Virus record (IMG/VR): IMGVR_UViG_2737471819_000031
Coordinates: 1 to 6,043 of that record
Strand: one strand, 5' to 3'
Length of the DNA stretch: 6,043 nucleotides
Origin: a virus
Lineage: Duplodnaviria; Heunggongvirae; Uroviricota; Caudoviricetes
Made by a program: the position numbers and the translations under genes. The notes below the pieces were generated by a model. It was not told the origin of the DNA. It did not search any database and saw only the letters and a list, made by a program, of their open reading frames with translations. Shown one piece after another: positions 1 to 6,043 of this stretch. The stretch's first letter is position 1; each line of letters starts with the position of its first letter.

Positions 1-201
1 ATGACTACGACTATTGATAAAAATCAATGGTGTGGACAATTCAAGCGATGCAATGGATGCAAGCTGCAATCGGAATGCATGGTTAAGCCTGAAGAAATGT
101 TTCCTGTAATGGAAGATGGGAAATATGTCGATAAATGGGCAATACGAACGACGGCAATGATTGCCAGAGAACTTGGTAAACAGAACTACAAGGCTGCCTG
201 A
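1..201 (+). CDS. ral: Ral-like restriction-alleviation protein (66 aa)
   Basis: Complete 201-nt ORF starting at window position 1. The protein (MTTTIDKNQWCGQFKRCNGCKLQSEC...) matches my recollection of phage lambda Ral in sequence and length, has four Cys in the N-terminal third, and lies upstream of a cIII-like gene as in lambda. Identity is from memory and not verified. Confidence 0.55.
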   Translation: MTTTIDKNQWCGQFKRCNGCKLQSECMVKPEEMFPVMEDGKYVDKWAIRTTAMIARELGKQNYKAA

Positions 202-218
202 TGGTGGCCTTTATTTTT
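190..218 (+). terminator. Intrinsic terminator with the ral stop codon in the hairpin loop
   Basis: RNA stem AAGGCUGCC / GGUGGCCUU (9 bp including two G-U pairs), loop UGAU containing the TGA stop at 199..201, followed by UAUUUUUG. Confidence 0.5.
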
Positions 219-259
219 GTCCGTAAATAATTTCATGCTTATTACAATCAAGGTGATAT

Positions 260-709
260 ATGGAAGAACAAGCAAACAAGATTCTCGTAGAACTACTGCA
301 AAAAGCCAGCAATGGAATAGATGCTGCTGTTTCATTTAGCCAAGCACAGATTCCTGATGTTGTTCATCAGTTGCTGCTATGGAATATGGTTGACAGTCTG
401 ATTAAAACATTAATAGCCATTCTAACAATCCCACTGGTTTTCTGGTTTATGAAGAAGCAGTGCCAAAGAGTTGAGACAGGTAAAATCGGTGATGAAGGAT
501 ACTCATGGGAGAGGGGAAATCCCAAATACAGGCCGACAATGGTTTGGGATAGCAAAGGAGATGTTAACCTTCTTATCATGCCATTGGTTGGAGTTTTGAC
601 TCTGTGGGGGATTTTTATTATTGGTGTAGTAACCAATATGACTTGGTTAAAAATTTGGCTGGCCCCAAAACTTTACCTTATCGAATATGCAGCATCATTG
701 GTTAAGTAA
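260..709 (+). CDS. Small two-TM inner-membrane protein of unknown function (149 aa)
   Basis: ORF with SD-like AAGGTG 4-5 nt upstream of the ATG. Two strongly hydrophobic segments (LIKTLIAILTIPLVFWFM and LLIMPLVGVLTLWGIFIIGVVT) flank a charged ~40-aa loop. Terminators lie on both sides. Confidence 0.6.
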   Translation: MEEQANKILVELLQKASNGIDAAVSFSQAQIPDVVHQLLLWNMVDSLIKTLIAILTIPLVFWFMKKQCQRVETGKIGDEGYSWERGNPKYRPTMVWDSKGDVNLLIMPLVGVLTLWGIFIIGVVTNMTWLKIWLAPKLYLIEYAASLVK

Positions 710-713
710 TTTC

Positions 714-740
714 AGGCCGCATAGTCGGCCTTTATTTTTG
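714..740 (+). terminator. Intrinsic terminator
   Basis: Perfect 6-bp stem AGGCCG / CGGCCT with 6-nt loop, followed by TTATTTTTGG, 5 nt after the stop of ORF 260..709. Confidence 0.65.
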
Positions 741-768
741 GCATAAACAACAGAATAAATACTGCACT

Positions 769-796
769 GTGTATTCATTCCAACGAGTGAATACAC
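769..796 (+). repeat. Perfect 9-bp inverted repeat (GTGTATTCA-N10-TGAATACAC)
   Basis: Arms are exact reverse complements with a 10-nt spacer, in the non-coding stretch between the membrane-protein terminator and the cIII-like gene. Could be a protein-binding site or RNA hairpin; function unknown. Confidence 0.45.
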
Positions 797-858
797 GGAG
801 CAATGTCGCTCGTAACTAAACAGGAGCCGACTTGTTCTGATTATTGGAAATCTTCTTT

Positions 859-884
859 GCCCTCCAGTGTGAGGGCCTTTTTAT
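859..884 (+). terminator. Intrinsic terminator
   Basis: 6-bp stem GCCCTC / GAGGGC with 6-nt loop followed by CTTTTTATAT; only the + strand gives a U-tract. Confidence 0.5.
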
Positions 885-948
885 ATGCATACCAATAATG
901 CTTCACCAGAGGCATTTTCGTTATGCAATCAAACAGAAGGAGCATCCT

Positions 949-1119
949 ATGCAACAGTTCGCTATTGCAGGGGCGGCATCGGTTCGCCCTTTCAACCCGA
1001 TTTTATCGGTACAGCATTCACGAAAAAACATTTTAACCGGAGCAGACTTTAAACAACCAAGAATGAAAAGTTTGCTCGAAAAGCTTTGGGATATTTTGAA
1101 ACAACAAGGCCGTCCATGA
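949..1119 (+). CDS. cIII: CIII-like protein (56 aa; FtsH-inhibitor family in lambda)
   Basis: Strong SD AAGGAG 6 nt upstream of ATG 949. N-terminus MQQFAIAG resembles lambda CIII MQYAIAG as I recall it; C-terminal SLLEKLWDILKQQG resembles the CIII amphipathic region; size and position fit. The longer six-frame ORF from 844 lacks an SD and spans the terminator at 859..884. Confidence 0.5.
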   Translation: MQQFAIAGAASVRPFNPILSVQHSRKNILTGADFKQPRMKSLLEKLWDILKQQGRP

Positions 1120-1286
1120 GTTTTACAGATAACTGGTCAGACGAAGAATTCATTCGTCAGATGAAAGAATTAATCGGTAGCGAAGGAGATATTCATGTCA
1201 CTTGCAACCACAGTGAAGGAGAGCAAGTTACAGAGACGCATGTACACGCAGCAGGCGTTAATGTATCGCCAGAAGGGAGATCGTGA
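1116..1286 (+). CDS. Hypothetical small acidic protein (56 aa) at the kil position
   Basis: ATG 1116 overlaps the cIII-like stop as ATGA (translational coupling) with a weak AAGG SD 6 nt upstream. Sequence not recognised; 'kil position' is by synteny only. Confidence 0.35.
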   Translation: MSFTDNWSDEEFIRQMKELIGSEGDIHVTCNHSEGEQVTETHVHAAGVNVSPEGRS

Positions 1287-1365
1287 AGGTGTTCGCGTAT
1301 TTTTAAATGCGGCAAAGACTGAAGTATTAAATCAGCGTTATTTACTTGGGTCATGTCCATTCTGA
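1240..1365 (+). CDS. Hypothetical small protein (41 aa, or 34 aa from ATG 1261) just upstream of erf
   Basis: ORF below the six-frame track threshold (MYTQQALMYRQKGDREGVRVFLNAAKTEVLNQRYLLGSCPF). It fills the otherwise non-coding 1287..1375 gap and ends 10 nt before the erf start. It overlaps ORF 1116..1286 in another frame and the SD is weak, so one of the two may be spurious. Confidence 0.3.
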   Translation: MYTQQALMYRQKGDREGVRVFLNAAKTEVLNQRYLLGSCPF

Positions 1366-1375
1366 GAACAATCAT

Positions 1376-1981
1376 ATGAGCAAAGAATTTTACGCAAGAC
1401 TGGCAGCTATTCAGGAGAATCTGAACGCGCCAAAGAACCAATACAACTCATTCGGCAAATATAAATACAGAAGCTGCGAAGACATTCTTGAGGGTGTTAA
1501 GCCGTTACTGAATGGCCTGTTTTTATCAATCAGCGATGAAGTTGTGTTGATTGGTGATCGGTATTACGTGAAAGCCACGGCAACTATTACCGATGGCGAA
1601 AACAGTCATACGGCAACCGCACTAGCACGAGAGGAAGAAAGCAAGAAAGGAATGGATTCTGCACAAGTTACGGGAGCTACAAGCTCTTATGCACGTAAGT
1701 ATTGCCTCAATGGTTTGTTCGGCATTGATGATGCGAAAGATGCAGATACAGACGAGCATAAACATCAGCAGAACGCAGCAGCAAAGCAATCAAAACCATC
1801 ACCTACACCTGAACAGGTTCTAAAAGCATTCACTGACGCAGCAATGCAGAAAAACACCGTAGAAGAGCTTAAACAGGCGTTCGCCAAAGCGTGGAAGATG
1901 CTCGAAGGCACACCGGAGCAGCACAAAGCGCAGGACGTTTACAACATCAGACGAGACGAATTAGAAGGAGCGGCTGCTTAA
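1376..1981 (+). CDS. erf: Erf-family single-strand annealing protein (201 aa)
   Basis: Protein from ATG 1376 begins MSKEFYARLAAIQENLNAPKNQYNSFGKYKYRSCEDILEGVKPLL, which matches the P22 Erf N-terminal domain as I recall it; length is close to P22 Erf (~204 aa). The six-frame ORF starts 30 nt earlier at 1346, but neither start has a strong SD; 1376 is chosen on the homology. Confidence 0.75.
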   Translation: MSKEFYARLAAIQENLNAPKNQYNSFGKYKYRSCEDILEGVKPLLNGLFLSISDEVVLIGDRYYVKATATITDGENSHTATALAREEESKKGMDSAQVTGATSSYARKYCLNGLFGIDDAKDADTDEHKHQQNAAAKQSKPSPTPEQVLKAFTDAAMQKNTVEELKQAFAKAWKMLEGTPEQHKAQDVYNIRRDELEGAAA

Positions 1982-2364
1982 TGGCACATTCGATTACTGT
2001 AAGACTAAACAAGCCCGCAAGAGAGTTTCAGGGCGGGGAAAATATCGGATTCAACATCCGTGCTGGCGTTCAGTATTACGATCGCCAGACAAAAAAGAAA
2101 GAATGGACAAACTACAGCGCCGTTGTATTTGCCAAGCCGGGAGCGCAAGCGGATTACTACCGTAGTGTTCTTGTTGAAGGTGGCATTGTAGAAATTACCG
2201 GAGAAAACATCAGGGTTGATGTTTATCAGGGGCAAAATGGTCAATCAATCACTCTTGAATTACTGAATGCAAAGATTGGATTTGCAACTTCAGGAAACAG
2301 CCAACAGCAGCAAAGTAGCAATCATCAAAATCATCCTGAATATGACGATTCCATCCCATTCTGA
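1981..2364 (+). CDS. ssb: Phage single-stranded DNA-binding protein, SSB-like (127 aa)
   Basis: ATG 1981 overlaps the erf stop (TAATG) with AGGAG upstream. C-terminus ...EYDDSIPF is the acidic SSB tail (E. coli SSB ends DDDIPF). The core EWTNYSAVVFAKPGAQADYYRSVLVEGGIVEITGE parallels the E. coli SSB OB-fold segment [31 protein letters not shown]. A Gln-rich linker precedes the tail. Confidence 0.7.
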   Translation: MAHSITVRLNKPAREFQGGENIGFNIRAGVQYYDRQTKKKEWTNYSAVVFAKPGAQADYYRSVLVEGGIVEITGENIRVDVYQGQNGQSITLELLNAKIGFATSGNSQQQQSSNHQNHPEYDDSIPF

Positions 2365-2387
2365 TTTAGAAAAATAAGGATTTAATT

Positions 2388-2684
2388 ATGCCAGCGCCTT
2401 TGTATGGTGCGGATGACGCGCGCCGCTGTTCCGGCAATTCCGTATCGGAGGTGCTGGATAAATTCAGAAAAAACTACGACCTGATAATGTCGCTACCGCA
2501 GGAAACGAAAGAGGAAAAGGAGTTTCGCCACTGTATATGGCTTGCAGAGAAAGAAGAACGCGAGCGAATTTGCCAGACATCAATCCGACCATTCCGCAAA
2601 GCCACATATACCCACTTCCCTGAATATATCGACCCGCGCCTGCGTAATTACCGCTCACGCTATGGCGCTATCAGTAATGACTGA
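2388..2684 (+). CDS. Hypothetical protein (98 aa)
   Basis: SD AAGGA 7 nt upstream of ATG 2388. Basic/acidic soluble protein, not recognised. Confidence 0.55.
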
Positions 2685-2694
2685 GGAATTTACC

Positions 2695-2859
2695 ATGAGA
2701 GGACTTGCATACAATCCCGGCATTCTTCCGGCAGAAATGATTATTCGCCAACGCGTAAAGCCAATGCCATCGAGAGAGGAATTGCTTAAGAGAAACTCGT
2801 TTCCATCAGTGAATCAAAACAAATATCTGAATGCGATGTGGCGGAGTGGGAAGAAATGA
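2695..2859 (+). CDS. Hypothetical small basic protein (54 aa)
   Basis: SD GAGGAA 5 nt upstream of ATG 2695. The longer six-frame ORF from 2542 would overlap the preceding gene by 143 nt and lacks an SD, so the internal start is preferred. Stop overlaps the next start (ATGA). Confidence 0.45.
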
Positions 2860-3371
2860 AACAAATGACACTAATTGAGATGGATGGATTTCTGAAAGGT
2901 AAATGCATCCCATGTGATTTAAAGGTTAACGAAACAAATGCTGAATATCTGGTGCGTAAATTTGCTGAAGCGGAGGCCAAGATTTTGGCTCTGTCCGAAG
3001 ACCAACAGAAAGCGATTGAGTCAATTAAGCAGGCTGATGCAGCTGTTAAGTTGGCACACGAGAAGTTTTCGGCGCTGGCGGCGGAGAATGCGGGGCTGAA
3101 GTCTGGCGCTATGGACGAAATCAAGGTTATCAACCGTGGAGGTCAGGCATATTGCGTAAAAGATGGAGTGCAAGTTAATCCCATGTATGCAAGAGGGTGG
3201 AATGACTATCGCGCAAAGTCTCTGCAATCAGACACCCCAGCCACCGATGCTTTCCTGGCTGATGTACGGGCACAGGGGGTAGAGATGTTTGCTGACCATC
3301 TGTTGTGCCCAGACCTTGATGACACTATCCGTGACTTTGCTGCCCAGCTTCGCAAAGGAGTGCGGTCATGA
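2856..3371 (+). CDS. Hypothetical protein with central coiled-coil region (171 aa)
   Basis: ATG 2856 overlaps the upstream stop (ATGA); GGAG 9 nt upstream. Ala/Glu/Lys-rich predicted helical segment ([47 protein letters not shown]). Six-frame start at 2838 is also possible. Confidence 0.5.
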
Positions 3372-4045
3372 GCAACATCGACAAACGCGCATTACGTCAT
3401 AGCGCAGAAAGCATAATCGGCATTCTGGAAAACATTGCCGGGTTCGAACCATCTGATATCGACGGCGACTCTGTAGAGCTCCGCTTTGAAACTGAGGACG
3501 GTTTCGATACTGGTTGTGACGTTAGCATTGTTGACCAGTGCCAGAAAACCGCTGATGTAGTTCGGGCGATGCTGGATGAGCTGGAAAGAAACCAGCAGTA
3601 CATCAAATCCCGCGACCAGGAGAACGAGGATATTGCGCTAACGGTAGGGAAGCTGCGTGTTGAGCTGGAAGCCGCAGAGAACAACCTTATTGATAGTGAG
3701 TGCCATGTTGCTGAACTGGAAGAAGCGCTACGCGATAAGCAGGCGTTACTTGAAGCATCAGAGAAGCGCATAGCAGAACTGGAAGCTCGGGAAATAAAAC
3801 CAGCCAAAGGTGAAGTTCTTGTCGTTGTTTCTGGTTTTACTGGTTGCGGAAAAAGCGCCATTGCCGGGGAAATAGAAATCGCGATGAAGGCTATTGGTGT
3901 ACCGGTTCAGTGGACTAATGGCGATGCGGAAAAGCGCATGACAGGAGCTGACTGGCTGACAGCGATTGAGATGTACAAACCAACAGTGCGCATCGTGGAA
4001 GTTAATGTGCCACGCGCCGCTGGCATTCGCATCAAAGGAGAGTGA
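3368..4045 (+). CDS. Ead/Ea22-like coiled-coil protein (225 aa)
   Basis: ATGA overlap with the upstream stop; SD AAGGAG 7 nt upstream. N-terminal [10 protein letters not shown]..., a long heptad-like acidic coiled coil ending ...EKRIAELEAREIK and C-terminus ...AAGIRIKGE resemble Ea22-like proteins of enterobacterial lambdoid prophages as I recall them. Synteny fits (between recombination genes and xis). Confidence 0.5.
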   Translation: MSNIDKRALRHSAESIIGILENIAGFEPSDIDGDSVELRFETEDGFDTGCDVSIVDQCQKTADVVRAMLDELERNQQYIKSRDQENEDIALTVGKLRVELEAAENNLIDSECHVAELEEALRDKQALLEASEKRIAELEAREIKPAKGEVLVVVSGFTGCGKSAIAGEIEIAMKAIGVPVQWTNGDAEKRMTGADWLTAIEMYKPTVRIVEVNVPRAAGIRIKGE

Positions 4046-4046
4046 T

Positions 4047-4547
4047 ATGACCACTATTACCAAAGAGCGACTGCTGACAATCAGGCAGTGGCGCGAAACA
4101 TACGGACCTGGTAGCAACGTTGTACTGCCAGCAGAAGAAGCGGAAGAACTGGCACGGATTGCTCTGGCATCGCTGGAAGCAGAACCGGTGGCGTGGAAGG
4201 TAACTTTCACGCAAATTGACCGTGAATATAACACGTTCACTGGTATGTATTCTGACAAAGCAGAAGTCGAACGGTGGGTGCGGCTGCATAAAGCATGTAA
4301 TTTTCTGGCAGATATAACACCGCTTTATACCGCCAAGCCAGTGCCGGTAACTCCGGATGGTTGGATAAGCTGTAGTGAGCGAATGCCGGATAAGTTAATT
4401 CCGGTAATGGTCATGTATGAAGACGGTGAGATGTGGTCTGCAATGTGGAATGGCAATCGCTGGGATGATGGCACCGAATATCCGGATCCGCACTCAGTTA
4501 CGCACTGGTGTGAAATGCCAGCAGCACCGCAGCAGGAGGTGAAGTGA
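4047..4547 (+). CDS. DUF551-like phage protein (166 aa)
   Basis: SD AAGGAG 6 nt upstream of ATG 4047, which lies 1 nt after the upstream stop. C-terminal region WISCSERMPDKLIPVMV...WDDGTEYPDPHSVTHWCEMPAAP matches the DUF551 signature (W-I-S-x-x-D-R-L-P ... V-T-H-W-M-P-L-P) common in the ead region of lambdoid prophages. Confidence 0.6.
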   Translation: MTTITKERLLTIRQWRETYGPGSNVVLPAEEAEELARIALASLEAEPVAWKVTFTQIDREYNTFTGMYSDKAEVERWVRLHKACNFLADITPLYTAKPVPVTPDGWISCSERMPDKLIPVMVMYEDGEMWSAMWNGNRWDDGTEYPDPHSVTHWCEMPAAPQQEVK

Positions 4548-4831
4548 TGGACTCCTTCGCGAAATATACGATTATTGACTGGATAGCATTCCTTCAGGTT
4601 TTGCTCATCTGGTTTTATATGGCTTACAGGAGTGGGCAGTGGATTGTCAGTGTAGCCTGTAGCAAGGGATGGCGTTGGTGGAACCGAAAGAATAAAAAAG
4701 CGCTGGCCTTGGATTCGTTTTACGAAGCATTCAATCTTAACAGCCTTCAGCCTGGTTCTGTCATTGTTGTCACCACTCAAAGCGGCATGACGATACAAAT
4801 TCACAAGCCAAAGGAGGAAGGTCGTGGCTAA
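4547..4831 (+). CDS. Hypothetical small protein with N-terminal hydrophobic helix (94 aa)
   Basis: ATG 4547 shares one base with the DUF551 stop (TGATG); SD AGGAGG 8 nt upstream (six-frame start is GTG 4544). N-terminal IIDWIAFLQVLLIWFYMAY is TM-like, followed by a Trp/Arg-rich stretch (KGWRWWNRKNKK). Confidence 0.5.
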   Translation: MDSFAKYTIIDWIAFLQVLLIWFYMAYRSGQWIVSVACSKGWRWWNRKNKKALALDSFYEAFNLNSLQPGSVIVVTTQSGMTIQIHKPKEEGRG

Positions 4832-5108
4832 CCTGCAACTTGCCGTAAAAGGTGAATACTTCGATGCCATGATTCGCAGAGAGAAAACGGAAGAGTATCG
4901 CCTGTGTAATGACTATTGGAATAAGCGCCTCATTAACCGTAAGTATGACCGCCTGATTATCACAAAGGGATATCCGAAGCGCGACGACTCCAGCCGCAGA
5001 ATTGATGTTCCGTATGACGGATATGAAATCAAGACAATCACACATCCCCACTTCGGCGATAAACCGGTAAAGGTATACGCGATAAAGGTGAATATCGGCA
5101 ATGAATAA
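4824..5108 (+). CDS. ASCH/PUA-like small protein (94 aa), GTG start
   Basis: GTG 4824 is preceded by a near-perfect SD AAGGAGG at 6-nt spacing and overlaps the upstream gene by 8 nt. N-terminal KGEYFDAMIRREKTEEYRL fits the ASCH pattern (compare E. coli YqfB FQDDILAGRKTITIRD as I recall it). Family call is tentative. Confidence 0.5.
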   Translation: MANLQLAVKGEYFDAMIRREKTEEYRLCNDYWNKRLINRKYDRLIITKGYPKRDDSSRRIDVPYDGYEIKTITHPHFGDKPVKVYAIKVNIGNE

Positions 5109-5112
5109 CAAT

Positions 5113-5137
5113 CCTCGCACTCGCGGGGATTTCTTTT
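5113..5137 (+). terminator. Intrinsic terminator ending the coupled gene run
   Basis: RNA stem CCUCGC / GCGGGG (6 bp, one G-U) with loop ACUC, followed by AUUUCUUUUAUC, 5 nt after the stop at 5108. Confidence 0.45.
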
Positions 5138-5180
5138 ATCTGAACTCGCTACGGCGGGTTTTGCTTTATGGAGATGATAA

Positions 5181-5348
5181 ATGCACTTCCGAGTCACAGG
5201 TGAATGGAATGGAGAGCCATTCAACAGAGTTATCGAAGCGGAGAACATCAACGACTGCTACGACCACTGGATGATATGGGCGCAGATAGCACATGCAGAC
5301 GTAACCAATATTCGAATTGAAGAACTGAAAGAACACCAAGCCGCCTGA
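5181..5348 (+). CDS. Hypothetical small protein (55 aa), absent from the six-frame track
   Basis: ATG 5181 with GGAG 7 nt upstream; translation MHFRVTGEWNGEPFNRVIEAENINDCYDHWMIWAQIAHADVTNIRIEELKEHQAA. Its TGA stop sits in the loop of the terminator at 5341..5361. The antisense six-frame ORF 5166..5372 has no such signals. Confidence 0.5.
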   Translation: MHFRVTGEWNGEPFNRVIEAENINDCYDHWMIWAQIAHADVTNIRIEELKEHQAA

Positions 5349-5361
5349 TGGCGGTTTTTTT
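5341..5361 (+). terminator. Intrinsic terminator with a stop codon in the hairpin loop
   Basis: Stem CCGCC / GGCGG with loop TGAT (TGA stop at 5346..5348), followed by a 7-T tract. Confidence 0.65.
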
Positions 5362-5375
5362 ATTGGAGACAAGAA

Positions 5376-5720
5376 ATGTCAGATTTGGCTATGAAGGTTT
5401 TGGAATGGCAATCGACTGGCGATGTCGGCATCAGTAGCGCAACTCTTGCCTCAATCGCATGTGGACTGAAAAAGAATATCTATGGTCATCACTTCGGCGC
5501 TCCACATGACGCAGCAGATTTCCGACGATGCGTTGCACTTGTTGAGCAGATTCCAGAAATCAGAGATTCATTCGACAAGGTTGCAAAGCGCGTTCCGGCA
5601 TTCAAAGGAATCCTCAACGAATGGGATTCACTCGTTGCTCTGTTGAAGTCTGAAATGAAGACGTACGGGAACAAAGCACCAGAGACTTACAGAAGAATCA
5701 GCGAGCTACGCAAGGACTAA
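5376..5720 (+). CDS. Hypothetical protein (114 aa) at the ea8.5 position upstream of xis
   Basis: ATG 5376 with GGAG 7 nt upstream, directly after the terminator T-tract. Soluble, probably helical protein, not recognised. Followed by two tandem terminators. Confidence 0.55.
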   Translation: MSDLAMKVLEWQSTGDVGISSATLASIACGLKKNIYGHHFGAPHDAADFRRCVALVEQIPEIRDSFDKVAKRVPAFKGILNEWDSLVALLKSEMKTYGNKAPETYRRISELRKD

Positions 5721-5723
5721 CCC

Positions 5724-5752
5724 GCCTCACACTCGATGAGGCATTTTCATTT
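5724..5752 (+). terminator. Intrinsic terminator
   Basis: Perfect 6-bp stem GCCTCA / TGAGGC with 7-nt loop, followed by ATTTTCATTT, 3 nt after the stop at 5720. Confidence 0.5.
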
Positions 5753-5777
5753 ATCAAGATATCCAGACCTACCATCG

Positions 5778-5800
5778 CCGCATCAATGCGGTTTTTTATT
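5778..5800 (+). terminator. Intrinsic terminator (second of a tandem pair)
   Basis: Stem CCGCA / TGCGG with loop TCAA, followed by TTTTTTATT. Confidence 0.55.
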
Positions 5801-5842
5801 GCCTGATTTGCAGGTTCGATTCCCTATTCGGAGATAGCACTC

Positions 5843-6043
5843 ATGCAACACGAACTACAGCCTGATTCACTGGTTGATTTGAAATTCATCATGGCCGATA
5901 CTGGCTTCGGTAAAACCTTCATCTACGACCGGATTAAGTCCGGCGATCTGCCAAAAGCCAAAGTTATCCACGGACGAGCAAGATGGTTATATCGTGACCA
6001 TTGTGAATTCAAAAATAAGCTCTTAAGCCGCGCCAATGGGTAA
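5843..6043 (+). CDS. xis: AlpA-family DNA-binding protein, putative excisionase (66 aa)
   Basis: GGAG 9 nt upstream of ATG 5843; complete ORF ending in TAA at the last base of the window. LVDLKFIMADTGFGKTFIYDRIKSGDLPKAKVIHGRARWLYRDHCEF matches the AlpA/excisionase-type winged-helix family as I recall it. It is the last gene of the co-oriented operon, where lambdoid phages carry xis ahead of int. Confidence 0.6.
   Translation: MQHELQPDSLVDLKFIMADTGFGKTFIYDRIKSGDLPKAKVIHGRARWLYRDHCEFKNKLLSRANG

Follow-up and report, generated by a model that had tools for sequence, protein, structure and literature searches.

The distal part of the window analysed here, a stretch of 6,043 nucleotides (nt) from a tailed phage (Caudoviricetes; positions 1 to 6,043 of IMG/VR virus record IMGVR_UViG_2737471819_000031), raises two linked questions: what is the 114-amino-acid (aa) open reading frame (ORF) at positions 5376-5720, immediately upstream of an excisionase gene (xis), and why is it surrounded by so many terminator-like hairpins? 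An initial annotation, made from the sequence alone, regarded the product as an unrecognised protein whose heavy insulation pointed to tight gating of a potentially toxic or stage-specific function. By sequence comparison, the ORF is a homologue of ORF114 of phages 434 and HK022. The explanation that best accounts for the locus as a whole, and that we consider probable, is that ORF114 represents an accessory gene, present in some relatives and absent from others, with which the pL operon of a P22-like Escherichia coli phage or prophage ends.

The ORF begins with an ATG on the plus strand and its stop codon ends at position 5720. A ribosome-binding site read from the sequence (GGAG, 5365-5368, plus strand) precedes the start codon by 7 nt, and a hairpin with a T7 tract (5338-5361) lies directly upstream, in agreement with the initial description of a gene that starts right after a terminator. 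The leader (5355-5378) resembles that of orf55 (5160-5183; 71%, repeat D2). The next gene downstream encodes a TorI-type excisionase (5843-6043), so that the position of the ORF just before xis was also correctly recognised. The protein matches phrog_1229 with an E-value of 2.7e-51 over residues 1-114. In a three-way alignment of the window, 434 and HK022, the window protein differs in 6 codons from 434 ORF114 (GenBank M60848, AAA67902; 94.7% identity by tblastn) and in 5 codons from the HK022 protein (X51962 / AF069308), with an amino-acid identity to these homologues of about 95-98%.

A megablast search with positions 5100-6043 matched 371 phage records. The nucleotide identity to HK022 and 434 is 94-96% over 5100-5811, and the homology stops at about 5811. 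The annotated gene order of 434 in M60848 is t-L4, ORF55, ORF114, t'-I, xis and int, and the window shows the same synteny of tL4, ORF55, ORF114 and t'I. The terminator tL4 is also annotated in the HK022 record X51962, and the complete 434 genome (OL657226) contains an annotated terminator (citing PMID 6305007) followed directly by the CII box and the promoter pI. The gene and two of its terminators are therefore already known from the 434 and HK022 GenBank records. The description of the protein as unrecognised holds for Pfam, NCBIfam and PADLOC, where scans gave no match, but not for the 434 record or the PHROG database. The features of this region are:

5110-5140, plus strand: terminator tL4, hairpin 5110-5131 followed by TTTCTTTTATC (-13.1 kcal/mol)
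5142-5172, plus strand: second hairpin of the tL4 region (5142-5161), GAACTCGCTACGGCGGGTTT and a T-rich tail, running into the orf55 ribosome-binding site (-11.0 kcal/mol)
5181-5348, plus strand: homologue of lambda orf55 (lambdap35) and 434 ORF55, 55 aa (phrog_676, E-value 6.6e-40, and alignments)
5338-5361, plus strand: lambda-type terminator after orf55, hairpin 5338-5357, stem AAGCCGCC/GGCGGTTT, T7 tract; left edge of the cassette described below
5376-5720, plus strand: ORF114 homologue, 114 aa, 12.7 kDa, isoelectric point 8.6, seven-helix domain
5722-5773, plus strand: relic of the 5' end of a P22-type xis, 52 nt, start codon lost (alignment to the SPN9CC xis start)
5724-5742, plus strand: hairpin inside the xis relic (-9.1 kcal/mol)
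5777-5797, plus strand: 434-type t'I, hairpin 5777-5792, stem GCCGCA/TGCGGT, T6 tract; right edge of the cassette
5843-6043, plus strand: TorI-type excisionase of the KplE1 / HK620 type (phrog_66, weak HTH_17 match)

The initial annotation equated this slot with that of ea8.5 in lambda, which the comparison contradicts. Because the lambda order is ea22, ea8.5, orf55 (lambdap35) and xis (also given in PMC8614690), and because lambda is collinear with the window through both hairpins of the tL4 region, orf55 and the stem GCCGCCTGATGGCGG, the lambda gene adjoining xis is orf55 and not ea8.5. The window has its own orf55 (5181-5348), and BLASTP found no alignment between ORF114 and Ea8.5. Past the stem, lambda continues through TTTTTTCTTGCGTGTAATTGCGGAGAC to xis, whereas the window continues through TTTTTTTATTGGAGACAAGAAATG to ORF114. 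The lambda stem is identical to window positions 5338-5357 and occupies the same position at the end of the exo-xis region; we take it to be the classical t'I of the older literature (Benedik et al. 1983). In lambda it leads straight into the CII box, pI and xis, with no gene between orf55 and xis, so the position of ORF114 is empty; in the window the ORF114 cassette intervenes and a second terminator, 81% similar to the first, adjoins xis. Additionally, positions 5799-5811 (plus strand) read TTGC-N5-TTGC, at the place taken by the pI CII box, TTGC-N6-TTGC, in lambda, 434 and HK022. The N5 form is also found in phages HF4s and Kapi1, after the orf55 terminator. PtorI has been described as uncharacterised (PMC2951348).

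HF4s and Kapi1, both P22-like, define the edges of the cassette. They carry orf55 and the same TorI-type xis without ORF114, and directly after their orf55 terminator stem comes TTTTTTATTGCCTGATTTGCAGG, precisely what the window has after its t'I stem. The two terminators of the window (5340-5360 and 5777-5797) are 81% alike over 21 nt and lie 437 nt apart (repeat D3), with GCGGTTTTTTATTG and GCGGTTTTTT(T)ATTG common to both. In the context of a lambda-type xis, the cassette is absent in lambda and present in 434, HK022, 720R6 and Gally, and in the last two it forms an insertion of ~448 bp inside lambda-type flanks. Phages 434 and HK022 share with the window the length of 114 aa, the upstream ORF55/orf55, the tL4 hairpins, the xis relic and t'I, but have a lambda-type xis after the cassette instead of the TorI-type excisionase. 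Among the phage records, a contiguous orf55-ORF114 junction occurs in 41, and orf55 is directly joined to a TorI-type xis in 18. These arrangements suggest a cassette of ~437 bp (roughly 5358-5797) that would consist of the ribosome-binding site, ORF114, the 52-nt P22-type xis relic and the second t'I-type terminator, located where the orf55 terminator runs straight into the xis leader in lambda and in P22-like phages without ORF114. It may have been gained or lost through recombination, or microhomology-mediated deletion, between the short terminator repeats.

The probable origin of the cassette is indicated by the relic. In the P22-like Salmonella phage SPN9CC, the first ~55 nt of xis can be aligned to window positions 5722-5773 and to the corresponding spacer of 434 and HK022; the in-frame translation of the relic is LTRLTLDEAFSFIKISRPT, compared to MESHSLTLDEACAFLKISRPT in Xis. 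The hairpin at 5724-5742 corresponds to the codons for L-T-L-D-E-A and is also found inside the intact xis gene. SPN9CC (NC_017985) encodes a 62% identical ORF114 homologue (SPN9CC_0005), and 3 nt after its stop codon starts an unannotated ORF that is 97.8% identical at the DNA level to the annotated xis of P22. This SPN9CC xis (116 aa; 2854-3204 of the examined locus) is missing from the RefSeq annotation and overlaps the annotated start of the integrase. As in the window, the SPN9CC homologue is preceded by the tL4 pair, and the 5' end of its intact xis is the part preserved as the relic. Unlike the window, SPN9CC has no orf55 and no terminator between the homologue and xis, and the homologue stands in the position of lambda orf55. 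Emek carries the same xis fragment, with its ATG, fused at a different breakpoint to the leader of a TorI-type xis, and represents a second, independent junction. In both SPN9CC and Emek, orf55 is absent and the ORF114 homologue directly follows the tL4 pair. The xis relic indicates that the cassette was captured from an arrangement of ORF114, P22-type xis and int, which still exists in SPN9CC.

ORF114 is widespread but not universal. The gene is carried by 279 phage records, all of which label it 'hypothetical', and the matches span Escherichia, Salmonella, Yersinia, Klebsiella, Vibrio, Mannheimia, Haemophilus (phage SuMu) and Arthrobacter. It is present in 963 of 5,426 complete E. coli genomes (18%) and intact in 915 of them. 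Truncated forms of 55-76 aa are found in the Shiga toxin (Stx) prophages of O157 strains (O157:H7 Stx2), one 76-aa form on at least 1,000 contigs, and lambda, HF4s and Kapi1 lack the gene altogether. These truncations and absences show that ORF114 is dispensable. A literature search that included the exo-xis papers and an accessory-gene screen with its supplements found no study of the protein.

Distant relatives, which were located with a narrow sub-clade of the family, adjoin replication, recombination and nin genes and have no fixed partner; an analysis of the neighbours at 22 such loci (16 non-redundant) found no recurrent one. The SuMu homologue lies in the early region between gam and gemA, and that of Yersinia phage P840 makes up the C-terminal portion of a longer ORF, which is flanked by a recombinase and an exonuclease. 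These contexts bear on the possibility that ORF114 has a part in site-specific recombination, such as modulating excision or integration. In phages of E. coli, Salmonella and Mannheimia, which have excisionases of three types, the gene immediately precedes xis or int, and it moved together with a piece of xis. However, most of the distant relatives are located among replication, recombination and nin genes with no integrase nearby (SuMu, P840 and IMG/VR loci), lambda, HF4s and Kapi1 excise without ORF114, and it is simply at this end that the pL operon varies, the slot before xis holding eaC in P22 and orf55 in lambda. A role in recombination is thus improbable.

The protein belongs to a large family. 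A word-indexed search retrieved only enterobacterial 'hypothetical proteins', whereas an exhaustive profile search returned 2,972 representatives with E <= 1e-3, of which 716 reach E <= 1e-10, each representing a cluster at 50% identity. Most members are stand-alone proteins of 105-135 aa, although there are also members with unrelated extensions and a single tandem duplicate. The fusion partners of the longer homologues matched no Pfam family and no additional PHROG family, and two were without relatives in the PDB. In many matches of the word-indexed search, such as P0015, P0017, P0030, P0032, P0051, P0052 and P0063, part of ORF114 is fused to Kil, Erf, Ea22 or DUF550 (dATP/dGTP pyrophosphohydrolase) sequence; such chimeras are presumably the products of in-frame deletions that spanned the pL operon as prophages decayed.

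Structure prediction, which the initial annotation had proposed as a check, yielded a compact, all-helical, seven-helix domain by AlphaFold2 with a predicted local distance difference test (pLDDT) score of 92.6, but sequence searches of the PDB with the single protein and with a profile detected no solved relative. When 42 diverse members were scanned against Pfam at E <= 1, the result was scattered noise only, and the soluble, all-helical model contains no signal peptide or membrane segment. Across these 42 members, which are 28-60% identical to the query, eight residues are invariant (W11, S20, P43, D45, D48, R51, C52 and W83) and four are nearly so (G18, S21, L55 and P60). The window protein has the full motif W11, G18-x-S20-S21, P43-x-D45-x-x-D48-x-x-R51-C52, P60 and W83.

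Given that the annotations have only ever read 'hypothetical protein', the ORF might be taken for a chance reading frame between regulatory hairpins. The confident fold, the proper ribosome-binding site, the 2,972 family representatives with homologues in phages of Proteobacteria and Actinobacteria, and the residues invariant among such diverged members argue otherwise. The fold, the size of the family and its conservation refute this explanation, and we assign it a negligible probability.

Two more specific assignments were considered and rejected. The Gly/His-rich segment YGHHFGAPHD, which the initial annotation had singled out, is present but lies in a variable loop (residues 29-45), and only P43 and D45 of it are conserved; a His-based or HD-type metal site was discarded since H38, H39 and H44 vary within Enterobacteriaceae and are absent in distant members. 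A helix-turn-helix or DNA-binding reading of the helix with the G-x-S-S-x-T sequence was also rejected, as basic residues are missing from this helix and the proteins of the family tend to be slightly acidic (median isoelectric point 5.8), which argues against a general nucleic-acid-binding role. Like ORF114, Orf55 and Ea8.5 of lambda and EaC of P22 (DUF5420) are small, non-essential proteins of the distal exo-xis or ea region, in the slot before xis. Orf55 has been modelled by Donaldson with a T7 Gp2-like fold comprising three beta-strands plus a single helix, and a modulation of RNA polymerase was speculated (PMC8614690); the ORF114 model, in contrast, is all helical. As a tentative guess from its size, context and dispensability, ORF114 may be a small early protein whose partner, from the host or the phage, is bound during early development, perhaps to serve takeover or counter-defence.

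The window contains more terminator-like sites than shuffled sequences do, 17 compared to 6.4 +/- 2.3 (~2.7-fold), and five of them are located on the plus strand within the intergenic spacers from 5110 to 5797. The stability of the stems relative to shuffled sequences is uneven, with z of -5.0, -3.0, -3.1 and -3.8 at 5110, 5142, 5338 and 5724, respectively, but only -1.5 for the annotated t'I at 5777; for the hairpin at 5338-5357 (-13.2 kcal/mol), 0 of 200 shuffles fold equally well. The sites at 5110-5140, 5338-5361 and 5777-5797 have the form of an intrinsic terminator, a G+C-rich stem-loop followed by a U-tract. The hairpin at 5110-5131 aligns with the annotated t-L4 of 434 (M60848) and tL4 of HK022 (X51962) and is also present in lambda, SPN9CC and Emek. 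The hairpin at 5142 is identical in 434, HK022 and lambda, and its sequence is a predicted lambda terminator, as is the lambda counterpart of the 5338 stem, which ARNold predicts as t5 (PMC4195576 Table 4). The hairpin at 5777-5792 aligns with t'-I of M60848 and with the terminator of OL657226. In the 434 stem upstream of ORF114, a central C-to-A change (GGAGG instead of GGCGG, aligned to window positions 5351-5354) should weaken the hairpin, and M60848 gives no terminator there.

The two tandem terminators that the initial annotation placed downstream of the gene fared differently. That at 5777-5797, with its T6 tract, corresponds to the annotated t'-I of 434, although its stem is weak, whereas that at 5724-5752 is the hairpin of the xis relic, with a mediocre tail (ATTTTCATTT) that passed the scan only marginally; its counterpart in 434 and HK022 is followed by CTGTTCATT, which lacks a U-tract. 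After both this hairpin and t'I, the T-tracts of the window are more U-rich than those of 434 and HK022. The similarity between an arm of tL4 and an arm of the 5724 hairpin (repeat D1) was considered as a sign of a duplicated terminator, but the origin of this hairpin from xis explains it better. Judged by these alignments, the predicted hairpins appear to be ordinary terminators of the pL operon (the tL4 pair and t'I) that are not special to ORF114.

This arrangement has consequences for expression. A scan for sigma-70-like promoters found none between orf55 and ORF114 (a spacer of 27 nt) and none within the 3' end of orf55, and a relaxed scan of 5200-5375 gave at best 3-4 bits, compared to 9.5 bits for the best sites of the window. 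The gene lies behind three terminator-like hairpins (5110, 5142 and 5338) at the distal end of the pL operon. In lambda, distal genes of the pL operon are read through only by polymerase antiterminated by N, and a terminator shields the excisionase from unmodified read-through. Antiterminated read-through for int and xis has been summarised (PMC2951348). By analogy, the terminators of the window would make all distal genes depend on antiterminated transcription, and t'I would keep unmodified read-through out of the excisionase gene. Because ORF114 lacks a promoter of its own, it is most likely a delayed-early gene dependent on antitermination, whose product would be made only after infection or induction.

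Lambdoid phages are known to carry morons, for example in HK97 and HK022, and ORF114 resembles these in being optional between conserved neighbours, delimited by a terminator and spread by recombination among unrelated phages. An autonomous, prophage-expressed unit that benefits the lysogen, through lysogenic conversion or superinfection exclusion, would be consistent with the presence or absence of the gene between conserved genes, the terminator on its 3' side and its frequency in E. coli prophages. Unlike morons, however, ORF114 has no own promoter in the 27-nt spacer or the orf55 3' end, and it is co-oriented with, and embedded in, the early pL operon. Moreover, its homologues are found in early regions of phages without a nearby integrase, including the Mu-like SuMu and 55-60-kb Salmonella and Vibrio phages, and the protein has no signal peptide or membrane segment. 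We consider it quite improbable that ORF114 is a moron.

The 'heavy insulation' of ORF114 is what the distal pL operon normally shows in its terminators. Here the pattern is doubled since the cassette lies between two terminator copies, and the hairpin of the xis fragment makes it look larger still. The view of the initial annotation was that the terminators exist for ORF114 and gate a toxic or strictly stage-specific product. Stage-specific expression in a generic sense is reasonable, as three hairpins precede this promoterless gene at the distal end of the operon, but the tailoring of the terminators to this gene and its toxicity are not borne out. The upstream terminator stem is found in lambda, HF4s and Kapi1, which have no ORF114; the middle hairpin is a fragment of xis; and the downstream terminator is t'I, which precedes pI and xis in 434 and HK022. 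The stem upstream of ORF114 in 434 has the central mismatch (GGAGG), and the SPN9CC homologue has no terminator-like sequence after it, xis starting 3 nt past its stop. The P840 and SuMu homologues are in runs of early genes with no terminators annotated, in records that annotate coding genes only and were not scanned. The protein matches no toxin or defence model, PADLOC in particular giving no such family, and full-length copies reside in 915 complete E. coli genomes. Nothing in these comparisons suggests toxicity, and we regard gating tailored to ORF114 as unlikely.

Some observations nevertheless weigh against the account of ORF114 as an accessory gene among ordinary operon terminators. 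In Mannheimia phage 1152AP2, too, the homologue (33% identical) stands just before xis and int with hairpin terminators on both sides, these being unrelated in sequence, and insulation itself could thus be selected; several neighbouring genes in 1152AP2 also carry terminators, however. The stem of t'I is weak (-8.3 kcal/mol, z of -1.5), and the sequences are compatible with either insertion or deletion of the cassette. With respect to function, the invariant S20, D45, D48, R51 and C52 could point to an enzyme or ligand site instead of a scaffold for binding.

All recognisable genes of the window are on the plus strand and together constitute the leftward early (pL) operon of a P22-like lambdoid phage. 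Upstream of tL4 these are:

1-201, plus strand: ral
260-709, plus strand: membrane-like ORF of 149 aa between ral and cIII (phrog_3054)
949-1119, plus strand: cIII
1195-1365, plus strand: small phrog_1723 ORF labelled 'recombinase'
1376-1981, plus strand: erf
1981-2364, plus strand: ssb
2388-2684, plus strand: abc2
3368-4045, plus strand: Ead/Ea22-like protein
4047-4547, plus strand: DUF551 protein
4547-4831, plus strand: DUF4752 protein
4824-5108, plus strand: 94-aa ORF; its counterparts carry an ASCH-domain annotation in HF4s, Emek and E. coli VCSW5

The best relatives of the entire window are mosaic (HF4s, 720R6, CUS-3 and HK022), each covering <=65% of it. The TorI type of excisionase is the recombination directionality factor of KplE1, HK620 and Sf6 (PMC2951348), also found in the CUS-3 module. 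Its counterpart in the closest chromosome, that of E. coli VCSW5, is named 'response regulator inhibitor TorI' by the Prokaryotic Genome Annotation Pipeline (PGAP), and the corresponding gene of HF4s and Kapi1 is annotated as 'excisionase'. In VCSW5 no integrase is annotated after the TorI gene, which is followed by a small DUF4942 gene and then cscB; this end of the prophage may be degraded. A second cluster of four plus-strand terminator-like hairpins (190-211, 714-731, 859-876 and 897-916) brackets the phrog_3054 ORF at 260-709, which is 'insulated' at least as much as ORF114. The Ead/Ea22-like protein (3368-4045) has a C-terminal extension with a Walker-A-like GFTGCGKS sequence and weak matches to the P-loop families APS_kinase, AAA_16, ParA and AAA_18, as well as to Avs2 of PADLOC. 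An Rfam scan of the entire window revealed no known RNA.

The locus is a clean example of lambdoid mosaic assembly, with near-identical terminators at the edges of the cassette and the fossil of a neighbouring xis from a previous host genome, so that both the donor arrangement and the breakpoints can be specified. In E. coli, ORF114 represents a large family that has a confident but unmatched predicted fold and no curated model. With ~3,000 clusters, no Pfam model, no detectable solved fold and a D-x-x-D-x-x-R-C motif, this family might conceivably represent a structurally new class of phage early protein that acts on one conserved target or ligand, for example as a counter-defence or takeover factor. 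If that were true, its function could readily be approached through the E. coli copy, which resides in 434 and HK022, classic genetic model phages. A function, once assigned to the family, would annotate thousands of phage genes at once.

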